NCBI RefSeq assembly: GCF_964355755.1
Contig: NC_092676.1
Span: forward strand, 15,766,871 to 15,830,870
Reading direction: 5' to 3'
DNA length: 64,000 bases
From: Antedon mediterranea
Lineage: Eukaryota; Animalia; Echinodermata
The number at the start of each line of letters is the position of its first letter. The stretch's first letter is position 1. A program made the translations under genes and the position numbers. Shown in pieces: positions 10,131 through 64,000 of the stretch. The notes beneath the pieces are model-generated. The model made no database searches. It saw only the letters and a program-made list of their open reading frames with translations, and had not been told where the DNA came from.

Positions 10131-10439
10131 TAGGCCTACTATAATTGCAAAGATGTATCTTTAGGGCTTAGAATTGCAATATGTTGCTATGGGCATGGCT
10201 CATATGCATGTACAGTCATTTTACTTTATGGAAATTATAAATTATAGTAGGCCTACACAACATATTGTGTTGAAATTAAACTTCCACCACAATTCTATAT
10301 TTGTCATATTTTGGTTTTCTAATATTTTTTTTTCTTTTTTGGCAATTTATGTAGCTAAATGCTTGTGTTTTTATTTTCAGGTCTCAAATTCAGTGCTTTA
10401 AGAAACTTCATTTGAAGTTATACTGTTGCAGATGTTAAA

Positions 10440-19334
<8,895 letters not shown>

Positions 19335-29700: not shown

Positions 29701-32700
29701 AATATTGTTTATATTGTTTTTGAATATTTTTATTTTTTAAGTTATTGGAGTTTGAAAACTAATTCTGTATTAAACCAACTATGGGTTATCGAGTTACATA
29801 ATTTCATAACCTTATATTTAGCCAGTCACTCTTCCCTGATATAACATAGTATTCATTTGGATTAGGAACTTTATTTAAACACGATTAATTTCCAATACAG
29901 AATAAATTAGATTACATAACGTCTAGTTTCTTTCTCAGGCTCAAAGCTAACTTGTTTGTTATTCATTTCCACTCAGAACAATTCCCATTATATAGTACAG
30001 TATTTTAAACAATTTTTGTTTTCACACCTAGTGAATTAGTTATTCATGACCACACCTACTGTCTGCTTTGTTTCTATTGGGTGGAAATTGTTTTGAGTGA
30101 CACCTGACTTCCTATCTACTGTATAGCTAGGAAATTTGAGTAAAATGTGTTCATTCAAATTAATTAACAGAAAATATAGAAACTTCATTATGATCTAAGA
30201 AGAAAGAAGAAAGGCAGTATATAAAAGAAAATGGAAAATGTTGTCAGAGAAAGCAATCAAAAAGAGATTCTATTGCATCTTGAAGGTTGCAAAAACTGAA
30301 ATGTTCCAGGTAGAAAATATGAGATGCCACAGAACTAAAAAGAGAATGATTGAGGAAGAAGAAAAAGATGGAGCCAAATATTCTATGCAAAGTCTTGGTA
30401 AAGTAGTTACGGCATGCAAACAAGAATTTGCCTCCGACTCCTTGTAAAGACCTCCAGTTTAAAGGAATATGAGTGTTATCAAAAGAATTTTGCAATGTTG
30501 AGCTTACCGGCATGAAATAATACTGGTAGTCATGGTATAGAAAGGAAAATGTGGACACTGTGTTGATGCTTATTTCGTCCAAATCACAAAGATGTTATGG
30601 ATAACGACAGATGGTTAGAAAAGGCATGTACCAAAGAGATTTCTACAGATGTCACTCAGAGAATGCCAAAATCTTTTTATCTATTGAGTCATCAGATAGA
30701 CCAGCATTTGTAAGCCTATCAAAGGACTTCTTGCATACGTTTCATGTTTTCAAATACCATGAAAATGTGAAGCTTCTTTTGCAAGTTGTTAAAACTGCAA
30801 CAACATATGAACACATTAGAACGAAATTTCGCAGTTGTATTGGATTGATAACTTGTGACCAATAGAATAAAGTTTGCATGCTACAGGGCTGTGATGGCTG
30901 TTGATCCAAATTCAATGACCTTTTCTACTTCTCAAACATGGAAAATCAGAAACACTGTTAGAATGTATTGATCTCTTTCAACAACAACAAGTTTATTTTG
31001 GTTTATACTAGCCTTTGTGAGACAACTACAGAGTACAGCATTTGAAGCACAAAATTAGCTGTTTTTCAAATTGATTTTTGCAGAAAACTTTTCTGTAATA
31101 CACCAGAATGAAATACAAAGCAGGAACTGGAATCATCTTTTCCATCTTCACTTGCTGTGTTCATGCTGGAGGTATGCAACTGTAAGCATGAAAATACTTT
31201 AATTTAGTTTTGAAGGAAGGTGAAATTACTGCAATATATATATTTTTACAGTGATGGGGTGGCAAAGCAGTTCAAACAAAAACCTTTTTTTTTAAATATA
31301 ACTCATTTTAAAAAGATTACAGTATTAGGGGATCAAATGGACATGGAATTTCTTTTTGCAACTTCACATGGAAAAGTTTTGGCAGTAACATAAGTGGTAT
31401 TGTGAAGAGCATGGCACATTAAAAGATAAAACTTTGCCATTTTGTGAATGTTGTAAAAGTAGTGAGTGAAATTGTGAAAGGCGTAAATGTTATCTACATC
31501 TACATTTCCAAGTGATTGGAAAAGACAGAACCAAGATAGATAGTTTTTTGGCAAATGTTAGGACACTAAAGACTATGAAGTTGTGACAACATAAGCAGTA
31601 GTAATAAAGGAACGATAAATGCACAGAAAGAAGATTTTTTTTTATCAACTATATAAAGGAAATAAGCAAGGAAATTGTTAACGCCCCATCTCTGTCCTTT
31701 CTGTTTTCTCTAAAGCTTTAGAAAGGGTAATCTACGATCGTACATTTTCATTTATCTCAAAACATAACATTCTTAACAAAAATCAATATGGCTTTAGAAA
31801 AGGTCACAACACACCCATGGCTCTCATTGACTTAACAAAAAAAATTGTTGACGCATTTGAAAGTGGTCATCTAGCCATCGGCGTTTTTATAGATTTGTCA
31901 AAGGCATTCGACACAATAGACCACAATATACTTTTATTTAAACTATCCCATTATGGAATCAGAGGGCCCGCATATGATCTTTTCAAAAGTTACCTTACCA
32001 ATCGTTTCCAATGTACCAAGTATTCTAATTCTGTCTCCAACTTCAACCCTGTTACTTGTGGTGTTCCCCAAGGCTCTCTTCTTGGCCCCCTCCTATTTAT
32101 TCTATATAGTAATGATATATATCTTTCTTCTTCAATTCTTAATTTTTTTCTATATGCTGACGACACCACTGTTTATTACTCTGACCCTGATGTTCAAACC
32201 TTATTTAATACTGTTAATACCAATCTGACCCTTATATCTCAATACTTTTCGGCTAACAAACTTTCTCTTAACCACAAAAAATGTAACTTCATCCTGTTTG
32301 GGACCCCTCAGAAAATTAAAAACATTGATACTGCAAACTATAACATTTCTATCAACAATCATGACATTCCCTCAGTCCAATCTGCTACATTTTTAGGAGT
32401 TCATCTTGACAGTCGACTTTCATGGAAAAATCACATCAATTTTGTTGAGAATAAAATTTCTTTGGCATCATCACTAGACTTTCTTCTTTTTTACCCCCTA
32501 ACATTCTTCGTATTCTTTACTGCTCCCTCATCCTGCCTTATCTTAACTATTGCAATATTGTCTGGTGCAACTCTTATCCTTCCAGTATTAAAAAACTTCA
32601 AACTCTTAAAAAAAAAGGCCATCAGGGTTATATCTGGCGCCCCACCCCTGTCTCATTCATCTCATCTTTTTTCAAAGCTCCATCTTCTCAAAGTCTCTGA

Positions 32701-34393
32701 TATCAATCTAACCCAACAAGGCTTGTTCATTTTTTCTTCTATTAATTCTAACCTTCCCAAACATCTCTGCTCCATGTTCACTCCAAATTCTTCAATTCAT
32801 TATCATCATACCCGTATTTGTTCAAAATTACATATTCCCACCCATAAAACCAACCACTTTCAACACAACATTAGGTATTCCGGACCCACTTTTTGAAACG
32901 ATCTGCCACTCCCCATCTTAAACTCTGTTTCTAGCAAATCATTTTTATCTAAACTTAAAAGTCACCTTATTTCCAAATATTAACTTTCCTCTGTGGTTTT
33001 TTTTTTTTTTTTAAATTTATTATTATTTTTTATTTTTATTTTCATTGTCTGTGTTTGTAATAGGTACGTCCTCCACAAGATGTGTTTTTCATCTTTCTGG
33101 GTTTGTACCTTCTTCTTTCGAAATTTTGTTTACATATATATTGTTCATTGAAAACTATTTTGTATATGAAAGGAGAAAATAAATGTTGCTTTGAATTGAA
33201 TTGAATTGAATGTTGCAATTGTTGATTACATTCCCAGAGACAAATCTGAATTTAACATTATTCATTTATACAAATTTGATAAAGGAGGGACACTTTTCAT
33301 TGTTGGTTTAGGATAATCAATATACAGTAGCTCAAGTACAGTAATATCTATAGTTCCTTCCAGCACCATTGATAGACAACTTCACGAGGCTATAGGATGA
33401 ATGTTTTTTTGTGGATAATCGATATATTGTAATTACAAACCATTGTATTGTAAATATTAAAACATTATGCTGACTGACACTAATTATCAGTAACCATTCA
33501 ATTTCATAATGTTACTTTTCTTTCATAGAATAACTTATTTTATTCTAATAAGACTGTCTGTGTTATTTATTTATATCTAGTAATAATTAAAATTTATAAT
33601 AAAAATGTTTGTTTTTTAAATTGTAGTTGAGGCAACTGGAAAAGCACATGTATCATACAAAGAGGTGGACTGTGGAAAGATCTATGTTTCAGGACTACCA
33701 GATGGTATTGTCTTCAACAGACCCTCTTCATATGGTGTTGCTGCTATGGAAAGAATAATAAATGAAAACAACATAACATTTGCATTAGGTATGAACATAT
33801 TGGTACAGTATATTAATATTATAGACACATAGAAAGTTACAAAAATGCTTTTATATTGGTACTGTGCATTCTATTCTATTTTATATCTTAATTACATTTT
33901 TGTAAGTTGAATGTTTTTAACCTTTAGGCTGCTTGTTCATGTTTTACACTATAATAAAAAAAATTACTGTGACTTTTGCATGAAATTTTGTATGTAATCT
34001 TATTTGATAGAGAAATGAAAATAGCACATTTTTTATTCTTCTAGGATTTAAAGGATTTAAGCGCAATACAAGTGAGTTGACCAATGACAAAGTGGTAGTT
34101 CAGATAATACATTGTTTGTGATTGGTCAAATTACTTGCACTGTGTTTACATCCTTTTATTGCATCTTAGTGCAAACCCACCTTAAGAAAATTATGTGAAA
34201 ATGTAGGCTTATGTTATGTTGACTAATTTAAGAAAAATCATTGACTTAAAACAAAGTTATGATGATTAATTGGATGATGATTTGCTAAACATGTTTGATA
34301 AATCTGACCGATGATATTTAATTATTTTTCATTTACTTAATTGTTTCAGTCACAGATGCTGAGCAAGAAGCCTCTGGGCCCAGTGACAGCTGA
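26768..34393 (+). CDS. Uncharacterised putative transcription factor: HDX-like homeodomain + HMG-box-like segment + TFII-I-like region with a single GTF2I-like repeat, 8 coding exons, 306 aa
   Basis: Exons 26768-26781, 27254-27398, 27760-27877, 28284-28477, 28834-28978, 29322-29420, 33627-33788, 34350-34393. All introns are GT-AG, phases are 2,0,1,0,1,1,1, and the total is 921 nt with no internal stop. Translation: MSRKRKYNTLNDEVKEILMSYWERGMDSYGCEGKRKLIADAAIECGITQNQVKDWVGNNRKK...KKTPSGYNLFFKDYYVEELAKGNTKIDIFKGAPHVWNQLKESGEAEKYFSMA...LSDLGVECIATFVTPMKSIVEVGTQVGKQFI...LRAEVQKLFNRKYFEATGKAHVSYKEVDCGKIYVSGLPDGIVFNRPSSYGVAAMERIINENNITFAL... Confidence 0.8.
30180..31620 (+). mobile_element. Highly degenerate DDD transposase remnant, Sola2-like, in intron 6 of the homeodomain-GTF2I gene
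   Basis: Fragments YHENVKLLL, LITCD..VCMLQGCDGC, QIDF/AENFSVIHQNEIQSRNWNH, FYSDGVAKQFKQK and WNFFFATSHGK, with many stops and frameshifts. The Sola2 assignment is from recalled motifs. Confidence 0.7.
31682..33210 (+). mobile_element. 5'-truncated LINE (CR1/L2-group reverse transcriptase) with 3'UTR and (GAATT)n tail
   Basis: [67 protein letters not shown]. Frameshifts near 32460 and 32610; ttgaattgaattgaattgaa tail at 33191-33210. Confidence 0.92.
34040..34185. mobile_element. Degenerate family-A MITE
   Basis: gagttgaccaatgacaa ... ttgtgattggtcaaattacttgc matches the internal inverted motifs of the 18100 and 61915 copies. Confidence 0.6.
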
Positions 34394-39800: not shown

Positions 39801-42800
39801 TACTTGTTATGTTTTGTTTAAAATGGACCTGAAATGGAATTTCGATTTTCAAGAAATTCACACATGTTATTTAAATGTATCAAATTAACACAAACCCATA
39901 CAAATAAAAACAAAATATATAGTATTTTGAGTAAAAACGAAATTTTAAGATACCATGGTAAATTAGCGAAAATTACTCACGCCATTGCAATATTCTATTT
40001 CAACGGCCGTCGGAAGCCTCTATATTCACGACGTCACATATACACACGATGATATCGAGAGCGTGTATGCCGCCTGATAGTCAGTGAATGATCGACGGCC
40101 TGGAAAGATACGCGAAGCGTTGACACTAATACTAATTTATTCAATATCTAATGTTGTTGAAATATAGGTCCCTAAAATGTACTTCGTTTGTTCTAAAACC
40201 CGAATTTAGAAGGCCTACCTCCCAAACCTTTACTAGCTAGGCCTAGCTAGGCCCCCAATCCAGTGCGCGGAGTCGATCCACCACCCACATCATGCGGCGA
40301 GGCTCCGTTTCATGTGCATCCAAGGACCAAAGCGATATCAACAACTTGCTGCGCTCATTGTCAAGCCAAAGTAAAATATGAATAAAATTCGTTTTCGAAC
40401 TGCCTGATTCGACAAATAAATTATCATCTCATATTACTAATTTAATTCTGCTAAACTAAAAACTAAAGAAACTATCACATTTTAGCAGTATAAATTACGA
40501 ACGATACAAAATACACGAACGGAAAATATGGATACGCATCATTGCGCACGGAGCTGTATCCCGGACAACGTTGCCAGGCCAACTTCGGTATTGCCAGAAA
40601 AAACCCGTTGATTTTAAGATTTTAAATCGTTATTTACTCGATCAATAACCGTTTATACGATAATAATTTTATCTAAAAAAATTCTAAATACGTTTCTGCA
40701 AATGCACAAGCATTTTTTAGAAAATACTCCATAGATTTCAAAACTGCAAATTGTCCATTGGAGGGATAGGAATATATTCGCAAAGTGACGTCACCCGCAA
40801 ATTTTTTTGATTTTCAAATGGGGCTTTCCCCAAAAGGGCCAATTTATATTTTGTAACAATATACATTCTAGCAACACCTAATAGCCCCCAAAACATCATT
40901 CTAAAAAGAAAAAAATCAAAAATCCATTTCAGGTTCATTTTAACCTTCGATTTAGTGAAGTTGAACTTTTAAATAAAGTTTTGCATATTTTAAAATTTCA
41001 ATTATAATTTATTTTTATTTATAACTAAAATAACATTTACTATCTAATTTATTATCTCGCATGACTAAAAAACAAAACAACAAGATCCAGGGGTGAGGGA
41101 ATTTCAATTTCTTTCACTTGTCCCAGGACAAGTACCTGCACGGAATTCACTTGTCCGAGAAAAAATTTACTTGTCCCTCTTTATTGCGCAATATGCAAAA
41201 AATTACACGAGTGTCGACAAATGTCACGCAAGTGTTTATTGTCTATTTAAAATTCAGCAGTTTATAGGCCTAGCCTAGACTTTTTTAGCCGGCTCAATAT
41301 TTTGATAAAAATAACGGTCATTTTTAAGTTTTATTTTATTAACACAACAGTGTCTAGAGTACTGTAGGTCTAATTAATAAATAGTAGTTAGTAAATAAAA
41401 AATAAAAGAATTGAATTACCAAAAAAAACTGTGGTGTCTAGTCATACTTGGGAACTGATCATTGTAAAATTCAATTTAATAATTAAAGTATTAGTAAATA
41501 AAAAGTTATATTTATTTTTTATCGCAAATTGTGTGAGCGATGAATAATGTGAAGGGTTTGGGAGCAATAACGCCACCACCAATATATAACGTTTGTATTA
41601 TACGGTGACGCTATTGCTCCTAAACCCTTCCCATTATGCATTGTGCAATGACGTTTCTCGCGAAATTAAGGTATTGGCGATATGTCAATACTTTATTAGT
41701 CCTGGGCTGGGAGACAACGTGACTTCACGTGGTACAATAAATAAAAAATATTATGGAGTGCACCAAATTTTTAACTTAAAGATTAAAAACAATTAAATTA
41801 TTAAATATTACGTTAAACTCCTTTCCTTTGTTGTGTTGTTATGGCGGCCCAAACCGACAAAATTGTAGTATGTAATTATTTATTTTATAACACAATAAAC
41901 CTAAAGACCATGAACTTATGTACTACATACACGTACAGTACTGTTAATCACTACACGCAATGTCATAAAAGACGAAGTGTTTCATAGAAATTACCGGCAG
42001 CTCAACTTGTCAGTGGCCCAACCGATCATATGCCATTTTATCGCTGGTTCTTGTTCAAATAGAAGTTCTACAGTATATTCATTAGGGATAGCAATGTATA
42101 TTCAAAAGTTTATTTCACGGTTTTTAGGGGTATATATTATTAAATATTACAATTTAAAGAAATTATGAAATCTGATTTGTAGTTTCCGAAATATATTGTC
42201 TAATAAAACATCGCCGAAAATGGGTATTCTGCAAACGCCGTAAATCCATAGCAAACCCCATTGAACCAACATAAAAGTCAGTGAATCGTGTAGTGTACAA
42301 TATACCTAATATGTCAAAAATTTCGTTTTTGTTTACTTATTTTTGGGATAAAACATCATTTTTTGGTTAAAAAGTAATTGCTAATTGCTTACTTGTTTTT
42401 GGAAAGAAAAATATAACAAGATTTACTACTAAAGCATCTTAACATGTACTTGAGATCATTTTATATCGTAAAACCCTACGTACCAGACGATACCAGGCAT
42501 ACCGGTGAAGATTAGCATGACCGCCTGGTTTCTGCACAGTACTTTCTTTCAGAATTTCGCTAGTTCCTAGGCTAGATCCCAACAACATTATTCATTAATT
42601 TCACCAAGATAATGATTTTTTATCATGGATTTTTTATTAATTTCAGGAGGGTGATTATAACTCTGCCTCAGTAGATTTATATGATGATGTGATAACAACA
42701 CCAGCAAATAACACACAGCAGCCACCTCGTGTAAGTAGTGGATGCTATGCATTGTTTGTAACTCATTGTCTGCAGCTAAGCACAATATTGTTTGGTTTGT

Positions 42801-45800
42801 TATTGTTGTTTGTACTACACAGTACTAAAAAAAGTTCAGTAGGTACAGTAGTAAAATATTTTAAATGTATTTTTGTTATTTCAATTGAATTTCATTTGAC
42901 AGATACTTTGCCAGTCAAATTGTATTTATCCTTTCAATTGTGGATAATTAATTTGATGTTAATAGTATTTAATTAATAAATCGTTTGCGTAAGGTTTATA
43001 ATGCCGTCTAGCACATACATTACAGAGCATCTTTAACAAACCTTCCAGCCTTTTCTTTACAATGTTGACATCTCTGGGACTTTAACACCCTTTTTGCACA
43101 ACCAGGTTTGCACAGTGTGAAGACAATTTTTTAGAAATTATATATTGGAACCTGTGAAATCTTAGGAGAAAAACACCAACTGGCCTGTTTTGGTTTCGAG
43201 TTGTACAGTACAGAAAGAATATACTGCAACTTTACCTACAAAGTAGCTTCGTAGATGCTTCATACTTTAGATGCTTCGTAGATAGGCTATACTGTAGGCT
43301 AAGTTTTTGGCTTCATAAACCTCAATAAACAACTTTCAATGAGCTACTGTATGTTCTTAACTTTGTAACCATGTCTGATTTTATTATATGTTTGAAACTT
43401 AAATTTTGTTAATACTAATAATCTAATTGTTTACTTTCTTATCTAGCGTGTGTCATCGAGTGGTGATGCAGGACCTCAAAAAACACAGACCATACAAGGA
43501 ACAACTAATCATAACTATGCCAAGAAAAGTTCATTGTACATTGGCAATTTGACCTGGGTAAGTTTTCAAGATACCCCTCAACCTAAGAACACCTGAACAT
43601 CTGAACAAGCACATGCACCAAACGACACTGCATTGTAATTGTCCAAATTACTTTAGTTGCATTTACATCCTTGCATTGTAACCTATTAAGGACCAAGTTT
43701 AAGCGTTTTAAAAGTAAATAGTGAATGAGGCAACATGGTGTTTGGGCGGTTGTCATGGTTTTGTATGACAGCAATTTGAGACAGCCATTTTGATTGTAAT
43801 TGTATTACAGTTAACTCTCAAAATACCGGTAAGTCTCCAAAAACCCCATTTTTTTATGGTTCAAAAGGACGGTCCCAAATGCATTGTTACCATTAAAAAT
43901 ACATTCTGAATACCAGACTTTCCAGAAAACCAGATATATTTTGCCAGTCCAAGATGTCTGGTATTGAGAAAGTTGACCTTACAGTATACAATGTTTTCTC
44001 TTGTTTATAACAGTGGACTACAGATGCAGACCTAAGTAATGCTATCTCTGAACTTGGTGTTAATGATTTGATTGAGATTAAGTTTCATGAAAACCGTGCT
44101 AACGGTCAGTCTAAAGGATTTGCAACTGTGCATGTTGGATCAGATGGTTCTTATAGGGTCATAATGAATGGTTTACCAAAAAAGTAAGTTAACATTATTT
44201 AATTTCTGTGATAAAGGTTTCATACCGGTACAAGTATATAGTATTTATTTTAAAAGTGCAAAAAGTTATTTACATTCAGGGAATCAAATGTTTTCAAAAA
44301 GCAATTAAGTGCTATTTTCATTTCCATTGTGTGTCTGCTGAGCTTTTTGATTTTCATGAACTCATGATAACTCATTTCCTAAGCTCTGAATGGTTGCAAA
44401 TTTGTTTTCGCAAAACATGAATATGCATTATAAGCTGATGTTTTTCATTCACGCAATACAGTAGACTAAAATTGTATTTGTAGCGATAATTAGCAAAAAA
44501 ATGTATTTTTACAGAGAATTACATGGACAGCAGCCAGTTGTTACACCATGTAATCGACAGAGCTTGACTCAGTTTGAGGCAGCATCTAGGAAAGGCGAGG
44601 CCAGAGCTCGTGAGTACAATTATCTTTAAGTGTAGTCTTCAGATTAAAGTTTAATTACCAATGGGGAAAAAATGTCACTGAACATGTTCTCAAATTTGAT
44701 AGTTGACGTGCCAGTCGACTTTGCCATCAGTTGATAACAGTGGACATGCACATCGAAATGTCTGTAATAATTTGGGAAATGCATCAACACAAATATATTA
44801 CAAATCGAGATTCATGGAATAATATTTCTTGCTTACTTTATTATAATTTGATGTGCAAGTATTAATTTGTAAAATTGTATGAATAGCTAATGATAGAGAG
44901 GGACCTCCACCTCGTCATGGACCACCTAATCATCGTCAACATGGTCCACCACAACATCACAATGATGGTGGTGGGATGCGTTTCCCATCACCTCAACGTG
45001 GACCCTCGCCACAAGGACCTCCACAAGGACCAGGAAATGGACCACCACCACGGGAAAATTTCCCACCTGGTAAATACCTATTTTATTTTATGTAATTCAG
45101 GTAATATCTTCAATCAACAACATCATAAACTCGACTCTCCATGCTATATGGATGTTCCAATTTGTCTTAGACTTTGTTCAATATTGAGAAAATTTGACCG
45201 ACCAATGGACAGACAGATACACATTTTGACTGAAGAAAACCAGTTCACTTTCATGTAAAGTCAACAATTTTAACTCCGACGTGAAACGGTTAAAAAATTG
45301 AAGTCAGGCAATGCATCAAAGTCAAAGATTAAGTCTTTCTAGAATTTATCCACAAAAATCCATGAATAGCAAAATTCTATTTATACCAACAATTTAAATT
45401 GTTACTGTTAATTACGGTTTTGATTTGGTTTGATGTTTTTAGTGGTTATTTCAGATTATTTATATTGACTTTCACAAATAACCGAAAACAAATTGTTACT
45501 GTGATTGCACATTATTTTTCTCCATATAGCTCGGGGACCACCTAGAGGTCCTCCACCTGGTATGCCACAAAGACCCATGGGGGTAAGTATCATGTTATTA
45601 TTCATGATAAATTTCATTGAAGGTTTTTCTATTTAATGACCACATTTTAAAGGAAAAATTTACATTGTACAAATAATTAATATTAATAAATGTTAAATTA
45701 ATGGAACCTGCAAAACAAATGAAAATATAACATTCAACAAATTCCAACATTTTTTGTTTATAACATACCTAATTTACGTTTACAGTATTTATTATATTAC

Positions 45801-48800
45801 ATCAAAATCTCCTAATTATGCAGGCTGATCTTTGAATATCACCTTTTAGTTCAATGAAATGAAATTACCAATGCCGTATGATATAAATTCAACCAATCAA
45901 ATGATAGGCATGGTGTATATTGCTAATTCATTAGATTTTTTAATATTTTGAACAGCATTACAGGTTATGGTTTCAAGATATATTGTCCCCCTGAAAAAAC
46001 AATTTGATGAATATGCCATTTTAATGTCACATAATAGTTTGACCAAAATTTGGTTGAAAAAAAATATTTACCTGAAAATATAGTCAAATTGACTGGAAGT
46101 CAATGGGCTTAACTGTTTATTTTGTCTTTTTACGGGTGAAAACTGTTTTTTTCCTGTAAGTGATTAACCATTCAATATTTTTTATTAATCTTAATTTTTT
46201 TTGGGACAATACATCTTTAATAAGATCATGTTTATTATTTAGCCTCCTGGGCCAATGAGAGGACCACCACCTCCACGTGGACCACCACATGATCAGCGAG
46301 GACCACCTCAAAGGTCGCCAGGTAAGATACTAGATACACCTCATAGTACGTGTTTGAAAGAGTAAATTTTACCCTCAACTTTAATTGAATGTCAATAGTA
46401 AATAATCAATCTGGTTTTATTTTTCAGGACCATTTGGTGGACCACCTCCACATGGCGGACCACCTCATGGCGGTTCCCCTCATGGTGGACCACCACCCCA
46501 TGGACATCATCATGGTGGTCCCCCTCATGGTGGACCCCCTCATGGTGGACCCCCTCATGGGGGACCTCATCATGGTGGACCTCCCCATGGTGGACCTCCC
46601 CACGGTGGACCTCCCCACGGTGGACCTCCTCATGGTGGACCTCCTCACGGTGGACCTCCTCATGGTGGACCTCCTCACGGTGGACCTCCACACGGTGGAC
46701 CTCATCACGGTGGACCTCCTCACGGTGGACCTCCTCATGGTGGACCTCCTCACGGTGGACCTCCTCATGGTATGCCGCCACATAGTGGTCCTCCCCCTGG
46801 TGGACCACCACATCCAGGACCAGGTGGCCCTCCACGTGGACCTCCTATGCCAGGGATGCCTCCTCCAGGACCTGGTGGACCCCCTCCTCAGAGAGGCCCT
46901 CCCCAACAATATGGACCACCAGCTATGGGTGGGCCACCGCCGCATCATCCTGGGCCTCCACCTCCTCATCCTGGTCCACCACCCCATCATTCTGGTCCTC
47001 CGCCACCACATCATCATTCAGGTCCACCTCCTCCTCACCAAGGACCACCACAACCACAGTATCAACAGCCACATCCTCAAGGACCTCCGCCAACACATCA
47101 AGGACCGCCACAAGGACCTCCTCCTCATTCTGGGCCTCCACCACATCCAGGACCACCACCTGTTCATCCAGGACCTCCTCCTCCAGCACCTCATGTCAAC
47201 CCAGCATTTTTTCATGGGAATCAAGGCCCTCCTCCTCCTACTTCACAAGCCAACTACACTCCAGATCAGTATAAAACATCAGACAGGTTCCCTCCACCAG
47301 CACAGCCAAGATATCCAGATGACCAGTACAAGACACCAGAACGGTATGTCTTCTTATTAATCTATTTAAATATTAAATTTCTATTCTGAAATATTTATTA
47401 TTATAGCCCTATACAGTTTGTGTAACCATGTGTTCTTTACAGCCTCAATATAAATCATTTACTTCTTCTATATTGGTTTTGTAAAAAAAACACAAATGAA
47501 TTGAAGTGACAAATATCGGTATTATTCTTGTTTAATATTCTCAGACGAGAGAATCCAGCACCTGTAGAAACGCCAGCTCTCAGTGAAACAGAGTTTGAAG
47601 AAATCATGTCTCGTAATCGAACAGTTTCCAGTAGTGCCATCTCAAGGGCAGTCATGGATGCTAGTTCAGGTAAGAAAAAGTACCTATTAAAACTAAAATA
47701 GTCTGATTTCAATCATGCATCCAAATCGTTTTTTCCATGTCTGTCCTGTATTGACCTGTAAACTTAATTTGTGTGTAGCTTTCCCTCGCCCACTTTTTTC
47801 TTACTAGTTTTCATTACTGTAATGTGTCATTACTTGTATCGCACTTGCTTTGTTTGTTTGTTAGCACGATAACGCCCACAATTTCTAAGTTATCATCCTG
47901 AATGTTTGTATGTACTTGCAGAACATGCCTATTGATTAAAATCTTACCTGTATCTTCCATATCCGATATTAAATAGAACGTCTGTATTCTTTTAACATGG
48001 ATCGAAATATCAAGTAGTGAGCCCTCTCTCTCCAAATATAATTTTTCCCTGCAATGTAATATTCAGTACTTCACTCAGTTTCTGAGTGCTTTCATCTGTA
48101 TGATTTTTTTTGCTTGATTAAACAGACATGTGCAATTTGATCAGATTGGATTGTTTTAATATTCCTCCAATTGAAATTCTTTTGTTTTACTGAATTAATC
48201 TGTTTATTTCCTTAAGAATGATAATTAAGTTACTTCTAACTGTATATGGTTTTCTGTTCTTAGGGGAATATGCATCTGCTATCGAAACATTGGTCACCGC
48301 AATCTCCTTGATCAAACAATCTAAAGTGGCATCTGATGATCGCTGTAAAGTAATCATCAGTTCACTACAGGATTGTCTTAGAGGCATAGAAGATAAATCC
48401 TATGGTAGTGCTGTGTAAGTATTTGCAAAATTCATCCTCCAATCCAATTGGGTGTACATGTTATGTTGATATTTAATGTACATTTTATTTATGATGGCCC
48501 TCCCATGAATTCAAAGTTAAAATGAAGTGTATTTTCCTTGGAATAGTACTACTACAAGCAGTAGCAGTAGTAAGAGAAATCGTGACAGAAGTTCCAGAGA
48601 TCGTGAAGAGCGCCATCGCTCTAGGGAATCGAAGAGCAGTCGCCACAAAGAAAGGCGTGAGAGATCACGCAGCCGAGGTAGTAGGGAACGTGAGTACCGT
48701 GAAAGAAGCCGGGATCGTGAATATCGTGACCGTGACAGAGGTGAACGTGAAAGCCGAAGCGATCGAGAACGTGACAGAGATCGTGAATATAGGCGCCGTT

Positions 48801-48802
48801 AA
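36818..48802 (+). CDS. CPSF6: Cleavage and polyadenylation specificity factor subunit 6/7 (CFIm68/59), 12 coding exons, 760 aa
   Basis: Exons 36818-36877, 42647-42730, 43447-43557, 44014-44183, 44515-44609, 44887-45069, 45530-45582, 46243-46321, 46428-47343, 47545-47669, 48264-48414, 48547-48802 (2283 nt, in frame). Motifs: N-terminal [14 protein letters not shown] and DLYDDVI; [29 protein letters not shown]; Pro-rich region with [10 protein letters not shown]; [38 protein letters not shown]; RS/RE-rich C-terminus. Confidence 0.95.
37461..38618. mobile_element. Non-autonomous DNA transposon in CPSF6 intron 1
   Basis: Ends tagggataacga...tcggtaacccta form imperfect TIRs, flanked by the direct repeat ctactag. 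The left part is homologous to 42083-42230. Confidence 0.6.
42083..42478. mobile_element. Shorter relative of the 37461 element
   Basis: tagggatagcaatg..aaatctgatttgtagtttccgaaatat..catcgccgaaaatg resembles 37461-37612; the element ends in aaacccta. Confidence 0.55.
43806..43985. mobile_element. Degenerate pogo/Tigger-like MITE
   Basis: tacagttaactctcaaaatacc ... ggtattgagaaagttgac imperfect TIRs. Confidence 0.45.
46436..46771 (+). repeat. Coding 15-bp minisatellite encoding (GGPPH)n
   Basis: ggtggacctcctca(c/t) units: about 17 consecutive GGP(P/H)H pentapeptides plus 4 variants, in CPSF6 exon 9. Confidence 0.95.
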
Positions 48803-49614
48803 TTTCTTAAGTATTGAGGTGAGTGAACTTTTCTTTTCTCTATTTATTCTTCTGTGGATAATGGTAAGTATTAAAAAGGTAGGTGCATTTTATATTTTTT
48901 TAAATAATGTTTTTGTAATTTAATATTATTTATTATAAGGTCAAAATAACGAATTAGGTATTTATGATTATCAAGTTGTAGCAGGAGTTTAGTTAACAAG
49001 TAATGGGTAACTTTCATCGGCTAGCCTGCCTGTTTTATTTATAATAATTGTTGTTGCTCATTAATGCGTTAAAAAAACAATTTCGAGCAAGGTTTGATGA
49101 AATCTCAATATGTATAAGTTTTATTTTTTATTTAAAAAAGTCCTTACTACCACGACCATCAATATTATTTATTTTATTTATTAACATGATAATCAACATT
49201 TTTACTATTGTTTGTTTTACCTTTAAAAGGAAATAGTGTTTATGCTTTAAATGAAAAGTTTTGGAGATCATTTTTTGCATTGAATGTAATTGTGTTTATA
49301 AACTAAAAAAGGGTATTTTAGAAATTTGACATATTGTTTGTACCATTACGTAATTTGTTTTTTGTTATAGTGTAGTTTAACAGTTATTTACAGTTAATCT
49401 ATTATGAAGTACAAGTTACTTACTTCAACGGCCTATGTTCTCATCATCTGACTGTAATTTGGCAATTAATTCTGGCAAAAAGTATTATTATATAACTTGA
49501 CAAGATAAGAAAGACATTTACTTACATTTTTTAAATGTATATGTACTGTATTTGATTGAATCTTTCACATAAATGATAGGTTAATATTCCTTAATGTTCA
49601 GTTTATTGTACAAG

Positions 49615-54712: not shown

Positions 54713-57194
54713 TTTTTGGTTATAATACACACTGTTTATTTAAATAAAACTACTGTAGAATGTTAATGCAGTAAAAAATTGTACTAGAATCATTTTTGAC
54801 ATGATTCCTTGATGAAAAATAAATAACAGAAAATCTGCAAGCCAGTGGGAAGTTATTTCAATATCTGTTGCAAATTGGTAACAAATTATGAACTTATTTG
54901 ATGTTCAATGTTGTAACAAGCATAATAATACACAAGGTTATTTACGTGTTGCAGAATTTGGTTTCATATTTTGTTTTATTGACTATTATTATTACAGTAA
55001 AATAATAGTTTAGGGCTAATTGCAAATAACCTCTTAAATATTGTTTCTTTGACAGATTAATCAAGCTAACGTCAGTGATAACAACTTTGTATAAAACTTT
55101 TATGAATGGGATGATTTTTTCTTTTAATATTTGTGGGGTAAAAACTGAACAATTAAACTTCTAAATGTACAGACAACTAGAAGATGCTGAAGGTAACAGA
55201 ACAACGAAGATGAAATAATTACAAATGATGAAGTGAAATTTGAAGACATTGAATACAATTGAGATGTTTTAAAGGATATTAGAAGTGGAGCAAGAAATCA
55301 GATTTACGTGGAAGAGTGCCGAGTTTACATTGTCAGAGAGCACCTCCAACATCCAAAGAATACTCTTGAAGCAGTATGAAAAGAACAAGTGCTGATCTCT
55401 TTTGAACTATTAAGCCAATTGTGTATATTTTGAAATTTGTCGTTTTTGAGATAAATGTAGCAAGAAGAAGATGCCATTAGTGTTACTGTTAGTTAAGTAG
55501 TGTTTTGTAGCCAAGCAAAGCATCTAAATGTATTAATGTATATAATGATGCTTGATAATAACCTATGATAATCATAATATGCTCTTAACAGTCTCATGAG
55601 GTAGTTAGAAGTAGCAATGTTCCTAAATTCAAAACCTACCTGCTAAGTTTGAATTATATTGTCAATCTTGATTTCTAAACTTGTAGTATAATATAATTAC
55701 ATTAGTATTTTCACATTTTTTATAACATGTACAATACTTGTTCCAAATTGTGTCCTTAATTCATGATTTTTTTTTTTAACCATATTCACCATCGATGTTT
55801 GCACATAAAAAATCAATCAGAGTAATAAATTTGAACATTGTTTTTAAATTTCATTAGTTTAATATGTGTTTGTATATATCATAATCTCTATAACCAATTA
55901 TCAAGTTTATTAGCACTATGCTTGCTTTACTTTGTAGATTATCAGTTATTAAAGTACACAGTTTAGTGGTTATATAATGTTGTATCATTTGTTTTTTTTT
56001 TTACTAGACACCATTGTAATACTGTACTTGTGTTCATCATACATATTTTTAAAATACTGTAAAACTATTCACGAGTATGTTTATAAAGTAAAAACACAAA
56101 CTGGTAAATTTAATATGCAACTAAACACTATTAATGAATTTTTCAAGGTATTTTCAAGAACATGTTTGATCCGAACAGTTTTTAATTTTTACTTTTTATT
56201 TGAGCGATGTACTTTATATGGTAAATCATTTTTAATGTAATCAGAATTTAATCTGTAACATTCAAACAACACTATTTAGAAGTATAATGCAAGAAATGAA
56301 TAAAATGTTTTCTATTTAAAAATGTGAATGTAGGAAGACACATGGCTTATGAAAATAATTAATTGTAAAATTAATTCCGTCATGTTTTATATAACAACCG
56401 CTATATAAAATGGGAACTATAATATTATGAAAGCAAAAGGCCTAGTAACTTATAACCAACAGGAGTATTAGGTATGTATTTAAGGTAAGTTATTTTAGCA
56501 ATGTTCAAAGTGTTCCAATGTTCTGATGAAAACAAGCTTGTAAGTATACATTTTTTCACAATTTTAGATCCTAAGATATGCATGCTACTTGGACGTTCCT
56601 ACAGTTTTAACATTTTTTAGTTTAAATATAAAATAAAGTATAAATTAAATTTGTGTTTCTAACATTAAGTTCCAGCTAATCTAATAGAGTAAAACTGCTG
56701 TGCTTGTTGTCATTTTAGCAATTATACCAACTTATGTTGTAAAAATAAATTTCAATTGATGGATCACTTATTCATTTGCGATATGCCAGATATGTATTTT
56801 GATATGAAGAGACTGAAGATTTCTGGAACTTGAGAGCAAATTTAGGTAAATAGACTATTCAATTTAATTAATAATTAAGGGAATTTTTCACTAGTTCAAA
56901 TTGTAATACTACATGGATCCAGTAAAGATGTATAGAGTTGTACTTTACATTGTGCAAGACCTGAACAGAGAATTTGTAATAAAATGTTTGAGAACAAATC
57001 AGATCTCCCATGTTTTATCTTGGCTGGATTGTTTTAGGGTGTGTGGCGCACCACACCATTGTGTTTGGCAATGGACTGATTGTAGAATTGGGAGTTTGAG
57101 ACTCATTGCTTGGCACTCAGAGTTACACTCAACATACCATAAAGCATATATATTTAAATAATCAGTCCCATGGCAGGGCATTTTTCAGTATTAT

Positions 57195-57460
57195 AATGCA
57201 CCTTTGATTGGAGGTTTGTGAGTCACATGATATTCAATAAAATATGGTACGCTAATCGAGACTGCAATGTCGTTTTGCGCATTCATTTTTATTATAAGCA
57301 ACCGACAAGAGTCTGCTGTTGACTGACCGTCTATTCTACTCCACTTAAAAAATTGGAGAGCTGCCTTTTTTAAATGGTTAAATGGTGAATAATGAATATT
57401 TCTATTTTCGCCTCATGGAATTATTTGCACTTTGCACAATTCCATTGCACTCAAATATTA
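57195..57460. repeat. Interspersed repeat shared with 18730-19000
   Basis: ttggagg(a/t)ttgtg(g/a)gtcacatgatattcaataa and cctcatg(a/g)aattatt occur at both loci. Confidence 0.6.
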
Positions 57461-58060
57461 TAGTTGAAATATATATCTTTGGATCATTTGCAGATACACC
57501 ACTTCTTCATATCTCTTTCTAGGCAACAAATAGCAAACGGAGCAAAAACATACTGGTACATATCTAATCTGAATTGTAGTTGTACAGTAAGAAACGCTTG
57601 CCCATGTTTTAAATGAATTGAAGAATTTCAATTCAGATAATTTCAATTCAGATAAAATATTATGTGCCGTGCCAATTTACCATGTAAAAACTGACAGAAG
57701 AGTTTAAATAATTACACATATACTATTTCTTGGACATTTAAGCAATTTATTTTTTAACCTTTTGTATAAAAATGAATATTATACTGGCCACTGGCTTGTG
57801 CAATAATACATAAAGTACATGGATCAAAGTACTGTTATATTTACCATGTTACTGAAAATACAAAATGCAATACTGAAATTGTTAATAACACACACATTGT
57901 TTATAAAAAGATACAGAAATATAAAACAAATTAAGCACCACAATTATTTGTTATCACCACAGCTTTGGTATGTAATATAAAATGAAGTAGCATGATATTT
58001 TATCAAGGAATTTTATATGGTCTCTGGCAGTGACTTTAATCAAGGAACTCTTGCAGACAC

Positions 58061-61000
58061 TTAGTCTTGGTCAAGAGTTTCTTTATCAAATGTGTATTCT
58101 CCAAGGCCTGTGCCAACATGCTTCAGTGATCCTATGTAATCAGAGAGTTTCTTTATGGCTTCAGTCTGCTCGGCCAGAAATGTGCCATCAATGAAATCAG
58201 CCAGCTATAAGACAATGTCACAAAATAAATTGAGATTGGTCCATGCAATTGTAGTAAAATCGTTCCATTATCCTTAATTTTAAGAATATTGGTTGGATAG
58301 TCATTGGAATGAGCGTGGATATTTTATTCAATATTTAAATTATAGGGTTGATTTTCACATGCAAAATAATCAAATTTCTGTAGCAAAACTCATGAAGCAA
58401 ACTATTAAGAATAATTAAGAATAATTATAATGCAGCCAAATATATAGGTATATTTACATGTTTGTCACCATGCTTCTCAGCTATTGCATGAAGGTCTAGC
58501 AATGACTTATTGACAGTCTTCTCAAGACCTAGTGCAACCTGCATAGCTTCCAATGCTGTACCCCATTCATCTTTCTCGGGTCTCTTTAAGAAAAAAAATG
58601 TAAATAATTTGTTTAACATGCTACACGAATAACAGACAACTAGTGAAGTGTTTGGGTGCCACAATCTCCTAACGCCCATGGATTTGATCATAAATAATTT
58701 TATGTCTAGCAGCTTCTCGCTAAACGTAATTTAATATACATAACAGCATTTACATTAACCGCTGGCCAATAACCAGTTAAATAACAAGACCGCTTGCAGG
58801 GAAAAATTTCATTTAAAAATTTTGTTTAGCAAAATTGCTAATCAAACTGATTGTTGAGTCTAGAAACATAGTTTTGTATTGCATTTTTTGCTACACAATT
58901 TGCAAAATGTGTAGCAATAAGGTTGTTTTGTATAGCTTTTTGCTATGCTACACTGGCGAAATTATTCCCTGCGCTTGGCCAATAAAATCTCAAAACATCA
59001 ATAATAAAATTCATCTCTTCACGATATTTCACACCTAGACTAAATGTCGATTGTACCTCATTTTGACTTTTTTAAAGTTAATTGAAGGCCTCCAACTTAT
59101 AGGCCCAAATTCTGTGACCAGTAAATGTGGAGTGGAGGACAAGTAAAAATGTAAATTTTACTGGTCCGCTTTTGTAGTTAAAAAAACCCCAACAGAGACA
59201 TCCGTAAAGATAGAAACTTAATGTCACAAATATTGATAAACTTACACAAATATCTTGTAAAACCATTCTGCCACCTCGTTGATTTTGGTATGTCATAAGC
59301 TTCATTGCATGTTCTCTTTCCTCATTGGAATTACTTTGGAAAAATTTAAAGCAGCCTTTTAAGGCTATATCATCACGGTCAAAATAATATGCCTGTATGT
59401 AAAAAAAAAAGGTTTTAAAATTGTATTATGTTCTTATTCTGTCTATTAAATAATGGACTGTTCTGGCCTAGAAATGTACTCCATTTAAAAAATGACTCGT
59501 CTATGCAGCATGGATAGAAATGATTTGTATCAATCAATTTACAATGTCTCTTGCCACCAGTGCACAGACTGCTCACAATTTAAAAACTTAATTGCAACCA
59601 GCTATACCCATGGGAGTGCAACCTGTGCATTCATTCATTCAATCTTTTATTTCAGAAACTTTGGTTCATAGAAAGTAAAAAATTACATATAAATGAAATA
59701 ATAAACAAGACTAATTACTACTACTCATCTCAGGATGACATTCCACCTGAAGAGCATCTTCGACATTGCTTATAATCGTTGAGATTAAAATATTTTTGCT
59801 TGCATCAAGTCTACACATCAGGCCATATATTAATTTTCTTAACAATTCATAAAAAGAAGGAATTCTACATTTCGTAAACATGAGGCTGGCACTGCAATGT
59901 CGAGGCCTATATGATGGCGATTGTACAGTAGCTACCAGATCCAGAATGTTATAATTGATTAACGTTAATATTTATTTACATTATCATACAATCCCAACTG
60001 TCCTGATTTTGATAGTAATGTCCCACTTTTTGATGTGTCCCAGTGTCCTGCATTTCAAAATATTTTATTCTATAAAAAATGTCACCGAACCAAAGAATAT
60101 AATACGACTGAACTTAATGTGAACCTTTATCTTTCGATTTCGATCTACCTCCCATAATGTATTTAAAAAGGCTTTTGGATATTTTAATTTCAACATTATT
60201 TAATGTGATTTCCAGGTGAGACCACTGTCTAGGTGGACACCAAGAAATTTAGCGGATTCAACCGTGGGGATGTCGACATTGTCCAGGGTAATTTTTATAA
60301 AGAGACTGGTCAATGTTTTTTGTAAACTTCTGAGGGGTTCCAAACAAGATTAAGTTTGAATGAATGTTTGAATATTGGGTGAGAGTAAATGATGGTCGTG
60401 TCGTCGGCATACAGAAAGAAAAATGGGAAAGAGAGGTAGATATCATTAATATATAAAATGAATAGAAGGGGACCAAGTAAAGAGCCATGGGGGATGCCAC
60501 AGGTAGAATAATTAAAGTTGGAGATAGAATCCAAGGTCCACGGATTCCATAATGTGATAATTTGAATAAAAGTATATCATGATCAATAGTGTCAAAAGGG
60601 TTGGTTATTGTTTTTAAAAAAAAACCAGAAAAGCCTAGCGGGTGTCAAGACTAATTTACAATGTCCCCAGTATTACCTGGCAGGGTTTTATTATAAAAAA
60701 AATGTTACATACAACCCCTGAGTACTGTACATGCTACGATTATTAAGTTATTGGTTTTTTAATTATTTTATTTATTTGTACGTTTATTATACATTAAAGC
60801 ACTGCTTATGTTTATTCCAAAGACTATGACGTTTTGTGGCGAAGACGATTGACACGTTTTAGGATGAGAAGTTTAACAATGTCAATATTTAAATAAATTT
60901 AACTTGTTTCGGAAAGAAAAATATTTAAATTAAATTTACCACTAGGCCTAACATGTTAATTATAGGCCTACTTGTTGATACTTATGTTTTATAATAAAAC

Positions 61001-61284
61001 CCTACCGGGCGTTGATTAGGCCAAATAGTAAATACATTTTGGGACGTTTCGACCCAAAAGTGGGGCGAATCGTCCCGGATTCCCTAGTCTAGTTGGACCG
61101 GCGACTGGCCGGCCTGCCTGCCTGCCTGCGTGGCCTGCCTAGGGTAGTTTAGTAATGGCATTTTTTGGTAATACAGGATACCTACTAATGATAAATATAC
61201 ATATGAAGCGTAAAGTTCTAAGTTAATTTGCTTATTGACAGCAGCTTCTGACTCTTCGTTGTAATTCTGGCGACATCGAGACAT
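58061..61284 (-). CDS. Ferritin, H-type with intact ferroxidase centre, 4 exons, 171 aa
   Basis: Minus-strand exons 61284-61186, 59392-59246, 58583-58458, 58204-58061, all phase 0 and GT-AG. Translation includes [81 protein letters not shown]. Residues equivalent to human H E27, Y34, E61, E62, H65, E107 and Q141 are all present. Confidence 0.95.
60185..60598 (-). mobile_element. LINE RT fragment related to the 31.7-kb copy, in ferritin intron 1
   Basis: [67 protein letters not shown]; internally deleted and frameshifted. Confidence 0.88.
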
Positions 61285-61405
61285 TTTACCACAAAAACCA
61301 ACCAAAAACAATTTCGGCCAAACAGTGTTTGTTGTATTCAGAAAAATATGAAACGCCAAATCTGCCTTCCAGTTTCCGTCAATTATTTGACGTGAGCTGG
61401 GATTT

Positions 61406-61414
61406 CTATTTATA
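61406..61414 (-). promoter_or_regulatory. Candidate TATA box of the H-type ferritin gene
   Basis: TATAAATAG on the minus strand about 120 nt upstream of the ATG at 61284. Confidence 0.55.
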
Positions 61415-61627
61415 GGCCTAACAATCGTTTTAAATAATGAGGTAGGCCTACGTTTGTGTTGTTCATCATTAAAGAATTTTTAATTTTAATCATTTGATTA
61501 GTACATAGATTGTTTATAAGCATTGAAGTAAAGTATTAAGTAGTAATTCTAAATAATTTTTAGTAAAGAGCCAAACTGCACTTTTTATTTATAAACTTCT
61601 ATCATTTCAATTCGAAATAGACACCAG

Positions 61628-63200
61628 CTATAAATTGGTATCCTCCAATGTATTACAACACGTGCAGTTGTCATTGGAAAGCAATTCTCTATCAAATGCG
61701 TGTTCTCCATGTCCGGGACCGACACGCTTGAATGATGTTACGTAATCAGCAAGTTGTTTAAGGACTTCAGTCTGCTCAGTAAGGCGTGTAGCTACAAACT
61801 GCATCAGCTAAAATAAAAAAAATCATATTGGTTAAATTTATTAAGCAAATGCAAATTCAGGAGGACGCAAGCAAACACCAATTCGAATAATCCATCGTTT
61901 GTTTGTCAAATCTCCTAAGGTTGGTTCTCACCTAGGACGCAACGCAAGGATGTAGACTCAACGCAAGCGAGTTGACCAATGACAAGCGATAGTTAATTCA
62001 TCGCTTGTGATTGGTCAAATCCCTTACGCTGAGTTACGTCGTGTTGCGTCTCTAGTGGGAACCAAGCATTAAGCTTGGTTTCTAACGCGTGGTTCCCACT
62101 AGCGACGCAACACAAGGACGTAACGCAACGCAAGTTAATTGACCAATCACAAGCGATGGCTTATTCGCTTGTGATTGCTAACTGTCTATAACTTCGCTTG
62201 TCATTGGTAAAAACGCTTGCGTTGCGTTTACGTCCTTGCGTTACGTTCTATTGGGAACCAAGCTTAATATATGACTAATCACAAGCTATTGGTTAATGCG
62301 AACTTTCGCTTGTCATTAGTCAACTCGCTTGCGTTGCGTCTAGGCTTTTATTTAGCCTGAATGGTGAATACAGTCACTGATCACGATGGAGCTGCCAAAA
62401 CTGAAAGAACAAGACAAAATGTGTCAAAAGCGTACTTACATGTGTGTCAGTATGTTTTACTGCTGTCTTATGAATGTCAATCCATGATTGATTAATATGC
62501 CTCTGAAGATCAACTGCAGAGTTCATAGCGTCCAAAGCTGTACCCCATTCATCTTTGACGGGTTTCTATGATAAAAACATTGTTAATAAATAATTAACAG
62601 ATACATACAGGTTGGTCCCACTACACAATAGCGTACGGTACGTATCGCATTTATGTTTAGGCGCCACAATCTCCATTACTCTTAATGCCCATGAATCGAA
62701 TTGGGCTGAGCACATAATTTGTTGATGACGTGACGGCGGTCTTGCAACTTCTCACAAAAAAAAAAAATGGGGAAACGTTTTAATCGGCCACATAAAGTTT
62801 AATCTTTAATATAACAATGATAAAAATGGCGAGCGATTTGTTCTATATTTCACTTACACTGATTTCGTTTAATACCACTCTGCCCCCTCGTTTATTTTGG
62901 TATTTCATAAGCTTCATTGCATTTTCTCTTTTCTCACTCGAGTTGTTTTTGAAAAATGTAAAGCAGCCTTTTAATGCTACGTCATCACGGTCAAAATGAA
63001 ATGCCTGGAAAAACAAACGTGTGCATAGATAACATGGTGCACATGGTATTTGCCTGAAACTACTACAGTATAGGAGAGGCAATAACGGATATCAAACTTA
63101 CTAATGATAAATATGTATATGCGGCGTAAATGTCCAAGTTGATATGTTTATTGATAGCAGATTCTTCATCCTCGTGATAATTCTGTCGACAGAGAGACAT
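61628..63200 (-). CDS. Divergent ferritin paralogue with substituted ferroxidase ligands and a Cys-rich C-terminal extension, 4 exons, 183 aa
   Basis: Minus-strand exons 63200-63102, 63004-62858, 62565-62440, 61807-61628. Intron positions match the neighbouring ferritin, and there are no stops or frameshifts. Translation includes [92 protein letters not shown] on the minus strand at 61584-61589. Confidence 0.9.
61915..62345. mobile_element. Cluster of three adjacent or nested family-A MITE copies in ferritin intron 3
   Basis: Repeated ggttcccactag..cgcaacgcaagga..gaccaat(g/c)acaagcga termini. Copies at about 61916-62070 and 62088-62266, plus a split copy ending at about 62345. Confidence 0.85.
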
Positions 63201-64000
63201 TTCCTTACCCGGCCTGACCAAACTGAAATACGTCTTGTCAAATGTATGAAATACAGAATACACCACGTCTCACTCCGTAATTTTGAATGTTTTCTCCTCA
63301 GCTGCATACACAGTTCACATGCAAATGAGGGGTTTTTGAATACTTAAAAGAACAGAGACGATAAATACTGTTCGTCACGATAATCGATTGCTAAACTATT
63401 ATTTTTTTCTTTTACTTTATTAATTGTCAAGTGTATGAGTTTTTCTGGTTGTAAATTTAAATATAATTTTTTTTTGGTTTGTGGTCGTGATACAACATGA
63501 TTGAATTATTCAAAACTATATAACTTTAGTGTTAGTGTCGTAGAACAGTATTAAAACCTTATTTTAATATATGACTAATTAAATGTACGAGCATGCGTTT
63601 CAGTATAAACGAGCGCTGTGATGGATATATTATTAAATGAGAGGCAACAATGTTGACAATAATATAATGATGATGTTGCCTCTCGTTTTTATGTTTATTA
63701 TTAAATGAAAGCAGACATAATTAGTTAAGAGTTAACTAATGGTGAATAATATACAGTACATAAATAATGGGATCGATATTTCGGTGTGTAGGTGTTTCTG
63801 TACTGTTGTGAGGCCTATTGAAAGTATAAGCACATACTTACATCGAAAACAAAGCTTAACACTCTTACATTCCTTCCTTGTGGTAAAGAGATTAAGTGTA
63901 TGCGAGATGAAATATGAGTTTTAATATTCTGAATTCGATAAATTTAGAAAGTCCGGCGTGTTCTGCCAGTTGCGCCAGCACCGTGTAATGAGTAACCGGC

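Follow-up and report, generated by a model that had tools for sequence, protein, structure and literature searches.

What is a ferritin gene that has lost most of its ferroxidase ligands and lies directly beside an active sister gene? The question is raised by gene B of the crinoid Antedon mediterranea, one of two tandem ferritin genes (A and B) on the minus strand at the end of the window, that is, the whole stretch of 64,000 nucleotides analysed here. An earlier note on this DNA had described B as an intact paralogue that evolved independently into a chain resembling vertebrate L ferritin and formed an H/L-like pair with its neighbour. The evidence given below indicates that B is real and intact, and probably functional in a limited structural sense; what this function may be is discussed with its rivals in the last part.

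Organization of the ferritin locus

Gene B consists of four exons (63102-63200, 62858-63004, 62440-62565, and 61628-61807) that encode 183 amino acids in a frame free of stop codons. All three introns are of phase 0 and of the GT...AG type, and the six splice ends are canonical, so that the intactness claimed in the earlier note holds. The protein is identical to RefSeq XP_071954776.1 (P0007), annotated as "soma ferritin-like." Exon 1 contains the start codon and helix A, exon 2 helix B and the BC loop, exon 3 helix C, and exon 4 helices D and E and the stop codon. Gene A (61284-58061, minus strand) encodes 171 residues, and its protein is identical to XP_071954777.1 (P0213), which is also named "soma ferritin-like." The spacing between the stop codon of B and the ATG of A is 344 nt (61284-61627), and the two proteins share 102 of 170 aligned residues (60%).

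Repeats were found in the introns of both genes. Intron 3 of B harbored a MITE-like high-copy element (61933-62342, no strand assigned) with nested inverted repeats, whose summed contig depth was 10^5 to 10^6 in all four sequencing runs. The introns of A contained further high-copy repeats near 58650-59020 and 59580-59950, as well as, in intron 1 (about 60150-60640, minus strand), part of a LINE reverse transcriptase, interrupted by frameshifts, that by eye resembled the RVT_1 open reading frame at 31682-32896; scanning one frame of this fragment gave no Pfam match. Upstream of B, a donor-like GTAAG motif was observed 9 nt from the ATG, an acceptor-like TTTCAG near 63222, and the exact octamer ATTTGCAT at 63326, and no TATA match was found within 800 nt. 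These motifs could be due to chance, although the GTAAG motif might in principle let splicing skip the start codon. Elsewhere in the window, the plus strand at 10400-16100 and 42600-48900 contained exons of two genes. One encodes ankyrin repeats (Pfam Ank) and presumably resembles BTBD11/ABTB; the other, with a proline-rich region, an extended GGPPH repeat, and a tail of RS type, presumably resembles CPSF6.

Residue replacements in ferritin B

Residues 3-169 of B were aligned to residues 7-177 of the human H chain (6b8f_A), and human H numbering is used throughout, with an offset of +4 until the first gap. Four ferroxidase ligands were replaced in B, namely E27D (codon GAC) in exon 1, E62K (AAA) and H65N (AAT) in exon 2, and E107Q (CAG) in exon 3. 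Both acids of the three-fold channel were replaced in exon 4, as D131Q (CAG) and E134A (GCT), and one residue of helix D was missing between positions 134 and 138, with the exact gap column depending on the alignment. The codons and the alignment thus bear out the six replacements and the deletion that had first been reported. Y34, E61, E64, H118, E140, and Q141 were kept. Each of the six replacement residues was unseen at its own column in 251 other single-domain homologues, i.e., the 253 of 296 proteins with a length of 160-185 amino acids, minus A and B (the remaining 43 fell outside this range and were left out).

Exon 1 of B also contained Q23H, L28I, and S31A. Three further features had been missed by the earlier note, including L114W in exon 3, a His at the position of the outer four-fold Leu in exon 4 (also seen in 4 of the 251 homologues), and a C-terminal extension of 12 residues past the stop of A (61628-61669), which contains three Cys. 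L114 is presumably a pore gate (frog L110/L134), and no paper on such a role of L114 was found. The outer four-fold Leu corresponds to Leu160 of the sea-cucumber ferritin (PMC8886333). The tail of B was polymorphic, with C175S in run X1 and T177K in runs X1 and X4. The original stop codon of B appears to have been lost, which gave rise to this polymorphic tail, and the extension is probably unconstrained read-through. A metal site in the Cys-rich tail was rejected as the main explanation for B because the tail is disordered in the structural model, polymorphic, and short of one Cys in X1.

Gene A kept all of its ferroxidase ligands, as had been claimed: E27 in exon 1 (61186-61284), E61, E62, and H65 in exon 2 (59246-59392), E107 in exon 3 (58458-58583), and Q141 in exon 4 (58061-58204), in addition to Y34. 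D131 was also kept. This active neighbour has itself diverged, with S57, N60, M67, and an E134D replacement that occurred in none of the 251 homologues and had been overlooked in the earlier note. B appears to lack a signal peptide, its protein start being in register with those of cytosolic ferritins in the alignment. Searches for an iron-responsive element (IRE) were negative for both genes: there was no IRE match among the five Rfam hits up to an E-value of 10 across 57000-64000, the region upstream of A had no IRE-type loop, and the 800 nt before B contained no CAG[A/T]G loop. B might have a remote 5' UTR exon located outside the window.

Fold of ferritin B

Ferritin B matched PF00210 with 94.7 bits against a cut-off of 24.5. 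The AlphaFold2 model had a mean pLDDT of 89.8 and contained all five helices, A to E (residues 10-36, 45-71, 92-119, 123-153, and 157-170), whereas residues 171-183 had a pLDDT below 50. The rmsd of the model to solved ferritins was 0.8-1.3 Å, about 0.9 Å. Helix D of ferritins carries a bulge, which the one-residue deletion might remove. A control fold of A displayed the same unbroken helix D in three-state DSSP. The deletion is tolerated elsewhere, as two ligand-complete ferritins (P0140 of Oscarella, and P0176) carry the same shortening of helix D. Changes unique to B occurred at 10 of 27 positions of helix A and at 13 of 28 of helix C, and helix D also contained many; those in helices A and C could weaken the assembly of B.

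Transcript support and a second individual

Run X1 was taken as RNA by guess, as no run was recorded as RNA; its contigs are spliced, and it comes from a different study than the DNA runs. A 693-nt contig of X1 joined exon 2 of B to exon 3 and continued into exon 4 and a further 245 nt of 3' UTR. The joint 62565-62858 skipped 292 nt with GT..AG ends, and intron 2 was without cover. No difference from the window was found over exon 2 (62858-62999) and exon 3, and the exon-4 piece contained three differences, all in the tail and the 3' UTR, of which two were coding (those at residues 175 and 177). The replacements in B are not assembly errors because the contig of another study matches exons 2 and 3 exactly, and for the same reason a second individual also carries the replacements of these exons. 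In this small sample, exon 2, exon 3, and the core of exon 4 contained no coding differences.

The contig stopped short of exon 1. A piece that matched exon 1 in X1 was the contig of A cross-mapping with 12 differences, and D27 was covered by DNA runs alone, possibly from the source sample; run X4 covered exon 1 with no coding differences. Gene A had its own spliced contig in X1, which included exons 2 and 4. The contig depths (161 for B and 171 for A) are unfit for ranking expression. Expression of B, proposed earlier as a check, is therefore supported by the spliced exon 2-3-4 contig of a presumed RNA run, and this support does not reach exon 1.

The contig of B defines a 3' UTR at 61383-61627 that extends past an AATAAA signal (61589) and over a TATA-like motif (61414), and this motif may serve gene A. 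Because the contig reaches 61383, the 3' UTR of B likely overlaps the promoter of A, which makes read-through or transcriptional interference possible.

Origin within crinoids

In four trees, B formed a clade with A and the Anneissia japonica protein P0123 (XP_033127242.1), with supports of 99/92*, 97/97*, 99/96*, and 100/96*. Constraining B to group with six L-type representatives was rejected (p-AU 0.003), as was a grouping with a gar chain (p-AU 0.0003). These trees show that B arose as a tandem duplicate within crinoids, from the lineage of A and independently of vertebrate FTL; both the local duplication and the grouping with the neighbour had been anticipated in the earlier note. The order within the clade was unstarred: the maximum-likelihood tree placed B outside A and P0123, and a clade of A and B was not rejected (p-AU 0.255). 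P0123 deviated from an otherwise invariant motif at the residues of the exon 1/2 junction, which suggests an error in the gene model or assembly.

The branch of B was three times as long as that of A (0.72 vs. 0.24). The synonymous distance between A and B was about 0.5, with 13 of 36 four-fold sites differing, and the introns had just one stretch of 21 nt in common; because of this distance and these introns, the duplication does not appear to be very young. Identical tracts between the two genes reached 20 nt at most, which gives no hint of recent gene conversion. Among 474 candidates no B orthologue was found, the closest non-self single-domain match being 61% identical, and an Atlas search returned ferritin clusters only. 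A. mediterranea contains two ligand-complete ferritins besides B. The second of these, XP_071941246.1, came from a protein cluster look-up, where it shared a 90% identity cluster with an Anneissia protein; it was the most conserved copy.

Selection on ferritin B

The B branch had accumulated 47 amino-acid changes and the A branch 21. Pairwise dN/dS between A and B amounted to 0.49 (bootstrap 0.32-0.77). Constraint on B is clearly relaxed because of this ratio and because most of the change lies on B. Six of nine metal-handling sites were changed in B, compared with 11 of 56 other sites that are conserved at 95% or more (Fisher p 0.007). Among these 11 sites, one change was common to A and ten were conservative; the only radical change was L114W.

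Neutral simulations were started from A as a stand-in ancestor, with branch lengths of 0.15-0.4, the synonymous distance split evenly, and no indels. Under these settings, 8-18 radical changes were expected at conserved sites against the one observed (P(<=1) <= 0.002), and an open frame persisted in at most 2% of runs (P(no stop) <= 0.02). At least six of nine metal-site changes occurred in 3-50% of runs, and in 18% at half of the synonymous distance. The simplest reading of these patterns is that the metal residues were lost at about the neutral rate, probably freed early and then drifting, while the fold remained under weaker but real constraint. The pairwise dN/dS ratio and the many changes unique to B in helices A, C, and D speak against this reading. 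Positive selection on the metal sites is not needed as an explanation, as no faster-than-neutral change was found there. An unprocessed pseudogene was also rejected, given the lack of stops, frameshifts, and splice defects, the rejection of neutrality for the whole branch, and the spliced contig; B is not a long-dead pseudogene because its fold has been constrained. A very recent loss of function would leave no trace in these tests.

Comparison with other ferritins

Adameyko et al. (2021) described "atypical" ferritins without a signal peptide, which made up 18% of the non-insect invertebrate ferritins in that set and whose function is stated in the text of the paper to be unknown (PMC8395497). 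In the sponge Halisarca dujardini, HdF2 carries E27Q, E61S, E62K, H65S, and E134A and has no IRE; it was detected as protein in a native cage band with active subunits, and a fine-tuning of iron binding within mixed complexes was suggested as its role (PMC8395497). Like HdF2 and EmF2 of the sponge Ephydatia, B has a long branch, is paralogous to an active ferritin of its own species, carries replacements at residues 27, 62 (K), 65, and 134 (A), and has neither a signal peptide nor an IRE (PMC8395497). Unlike the sponge proteins, B also contains E107Q, D131Q, L114W, and the helix-D deletion, keeps E61, adjoins its active sister, and has a separate origin in crinoids. Furthermore, HdF2 is known as protein from a cage band, whereas B is known from its gene and a spliced contig. 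Judged by sequence, B falls within the definition of atypical ferritins (PMC8395497) because it carries six replacements of the ferroxidase centre and channel, its identity to human H variants being 47-48% in structural alignments and not by the Needle method of that paper. It thus belongs with the atypical invertebrate ferritins and not with the vertebrate L chains, as a new member of a described class. A view of B as surprising is not supported, as ferroxidase-dead E62K/E134A paralogues of invertebrates are already a published class (PMC8395497). The literature search found no paper on gene B and none on crinoid ferritins, and the supplement of PMC8395497 may list crinoid atypical ferritins.

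Mammalian FTHL17 is a second parallel: this paralogue derives from H, carries E62K, and is devoid of ferroxidase activity (PMC7760355), a loss that is predicted for B as well. FTHL17 keeps most other ligands, is X-linked, and is expressed in germ cells (PMC7760355), whereas in B four ligands and the two pore acids are gone and the gene contains three introns.

E62K also occurred in more distant chains. The Lingula anatina model XP_023933523.1 (P0122) fuses two tandem ferritin copies that both contain E62K and L114W, and its second copy has also lost E140 and Q141. Several other "ferritins" of 260-315 amino acids among the matches appeared to be similar fused models of tandem genes. K62 was present in both ferritins of the shark Stegostoma (P0211 and P0212). 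The Lingula copies and the shark chain were placed elsewhere than B in the maximum-likelihood tree, and clades forced with B were not rejected, with a p-AU of 0.24 for the Lingula copies and 0.06 for the shark chain. E62K in B and in these chains is thus likely to be convergent; an ancient common origin of B and the Lingula atypical ferritins was not favored by the tree. Among the best 150 of 3155 family representatives, K62 was found in 20 and W114 in one (Lingula). Positions 27, 62, 65, and 107 were covered by 134 of the 150, of which 43 had lost at least two of these ligands, 24 at least three, and two all four, as in B; mammalian L copies, pseudogenes, and poor gene models inflate these survey numbers, and E62K requires just one transition.

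Possible role of ferritin B

Loss of ferroxidase activity in B is near certain because of published mutants, as E62K alone was reported to be sufficient to abolish it (PMC7760355). In a sea-cucumber ferritin, the mutants E25A/E60A/E105A and D129A/E132A, which correspond to E27/E62/E107 and D131/E134, still formed shells and oxidised iron slowly (PMC9785301), and in mitochondrial ferritin D131A abolished the rapid oxidation (PMC12022971). Human H chains mutated at the three-fold axis could nevertheless be incorporated into 24-mers along with wild-type chains (PMC3179174). A sequence of events can be proposed on this basis. B arose from the A lineage by duplication within crinoids; the substitution patterns suggest that its iron-handling residues were then released early from selection, with the fold still constrained. 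By analogy with the published mutants, B would have no ferroxidase activity, and Fe2+ entry would be poor at pores that contain it. B may co-assemble in mixed 24-mer cages with A or with XP_071941246.1, which is an equally plausible partner. Each B subunit would cost the cage one ferroxidase centre and deprive a shared pore of two acids, and iron loading would be slowed or tuned. Entry into mixed cages would be the most likely fate of a chain that is folded, expressed, and inactive and occurs in a cell alongside active ferritin. We give about an even chance to the reading that B is a catalytically dead filler subunit damping iron uptake in mixed cages with active ferritin.

The same losses would be expected of a redundant duplicate that drifts toward a pseudogene, with its iron function gone and no role of its own, a reading that we consider rather unlikely but the strongest of the rivals. 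The long branch of B, metal-site losses that fit neutrality, the apparently lost stop codon with its polymorphic tail, the lack of an orthologue among the candidates, and the two ligand-complete ferritins of the species are all consistent with drift, and foldability may have been kept because cages would be harmed by misfolded subunits or because the decay has not yet run its course. However, an open frame together with a single radical change at conserved structural sites is very unlikely under neutrality of the whole branch. The canonical splice ends, the spliced contig, and the core without coding differences in a second individual (a small sample) also argue against it.

It is improbable, and less probable than drift, that the task of B has nothing to do with iron storage and is carried out in cages built from B alone or by B outside any cage. 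Such a task could be the binding of haem or of metals other than iron, with His residues lining the four-fold pore, or a function in the nucleus or germ line comparable to that of FTHL17. This possibility draws on the loss of the whole iron route, pore as well as catalytic site, on a pI of 6.1 compared with 5.1 in other crinoid ferritins, and on the rare His at the outer four-fold position, where sponge ferritins also have a His with predicted haem binding (PMC8395497). FTHL17, with the same E62K, is partially nuclear (PMC7760355), and E62K plus L114W are common to B and the Lingula atypical ferritin. On the other hand, no new conserved motif can be demonstrated in a gene without orthologues, the Cys-rich tail is disordered and variable, and the metal sites have not changed faster than neutrality predicts.

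A bolder reading is that B is a selected, dedicated regulatory subunit which re-plumbs the cage, and that unrelated animals repeatedly reach the same "pore-closing" design, distinct from the nucleating vertebrate L chain; we regard this as doubtful. It is equally doubtful that the three-fold iron route is closed by D131Q, E134A, the pore-side L114W, and a straightened helix D while the four-fold pore gains a ring of His. The E62K and L114W pair in a brachiopod would likewise be a quite uncertain sign of such a repeated design.

The remaining reading, the main one of the earlier note, in which B is a true analogue of the vertebrate L chain that co-assembles with A, nucleates mineral, and stabilizes the cage, is also quite improbable. 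For this comparison P0344, P0355, P0381, P0385, P0388, and P0391 were taken as L-type representatives by their sequence features. They contained K62 with G or Q at position 65, and B resembles vertebrate FTL in K62, the absence of H65 and E27, and the ferritin fold, in addition to adjoining an active paralogue. E107 forms a salt bridge with K62 in the L chain. E107 was kept in the vertebrate L-type chains, D131 and E134 were kept where covered (all three in P0381 and P0385), and the chains mostly had E57, E60, E61, and E64, whereas B contains Q107, Q131, A134, N57, and S60, is of separate descent, and has no IRE found upstream. B keeps E61, E64, and E140, the residues to which nascent mineral is anchored in mitochondrial ferritin and human L (PMC12022971). 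The patch E57/E60/E61/E64 is the nucleation site of the L chain (PMC12022971, PMC8886333), and B has two acidic residues of four there, the same number as A with S57 and N60. This patch is what the L chain supplies (PMC11719527, PMC12022971), and the L reading is therefore weak for B, which has N57 and S60 and no more nucleation acids than A, with fewer acidic residues overall (26 vs. 29). Moreover, M-type chains of marine invertebrates already join both functions on one subunit (PMC8886333). The H/L-like pair of the earlier note therefore stands for the dead ferroxidase site (K62 and N65) and is not supported as an equivalent of L; "L-like" fits the dead site of B alone.

Implications

Gene B reveals no new kind of system. 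Its locus offers a clean test case, in which a dead subunit lies 344 nt from a 60%-identical active sister and a third, conserved ferritin is present in the same species. The three Antedon ferritins are small, soluble proteins of a deuterostome, and their co-expression could tell whether dead subunits dilute or gate iron uptake, replace an L chain, or do nothing, which bears on how easily an H/L-like division of labour evolves.
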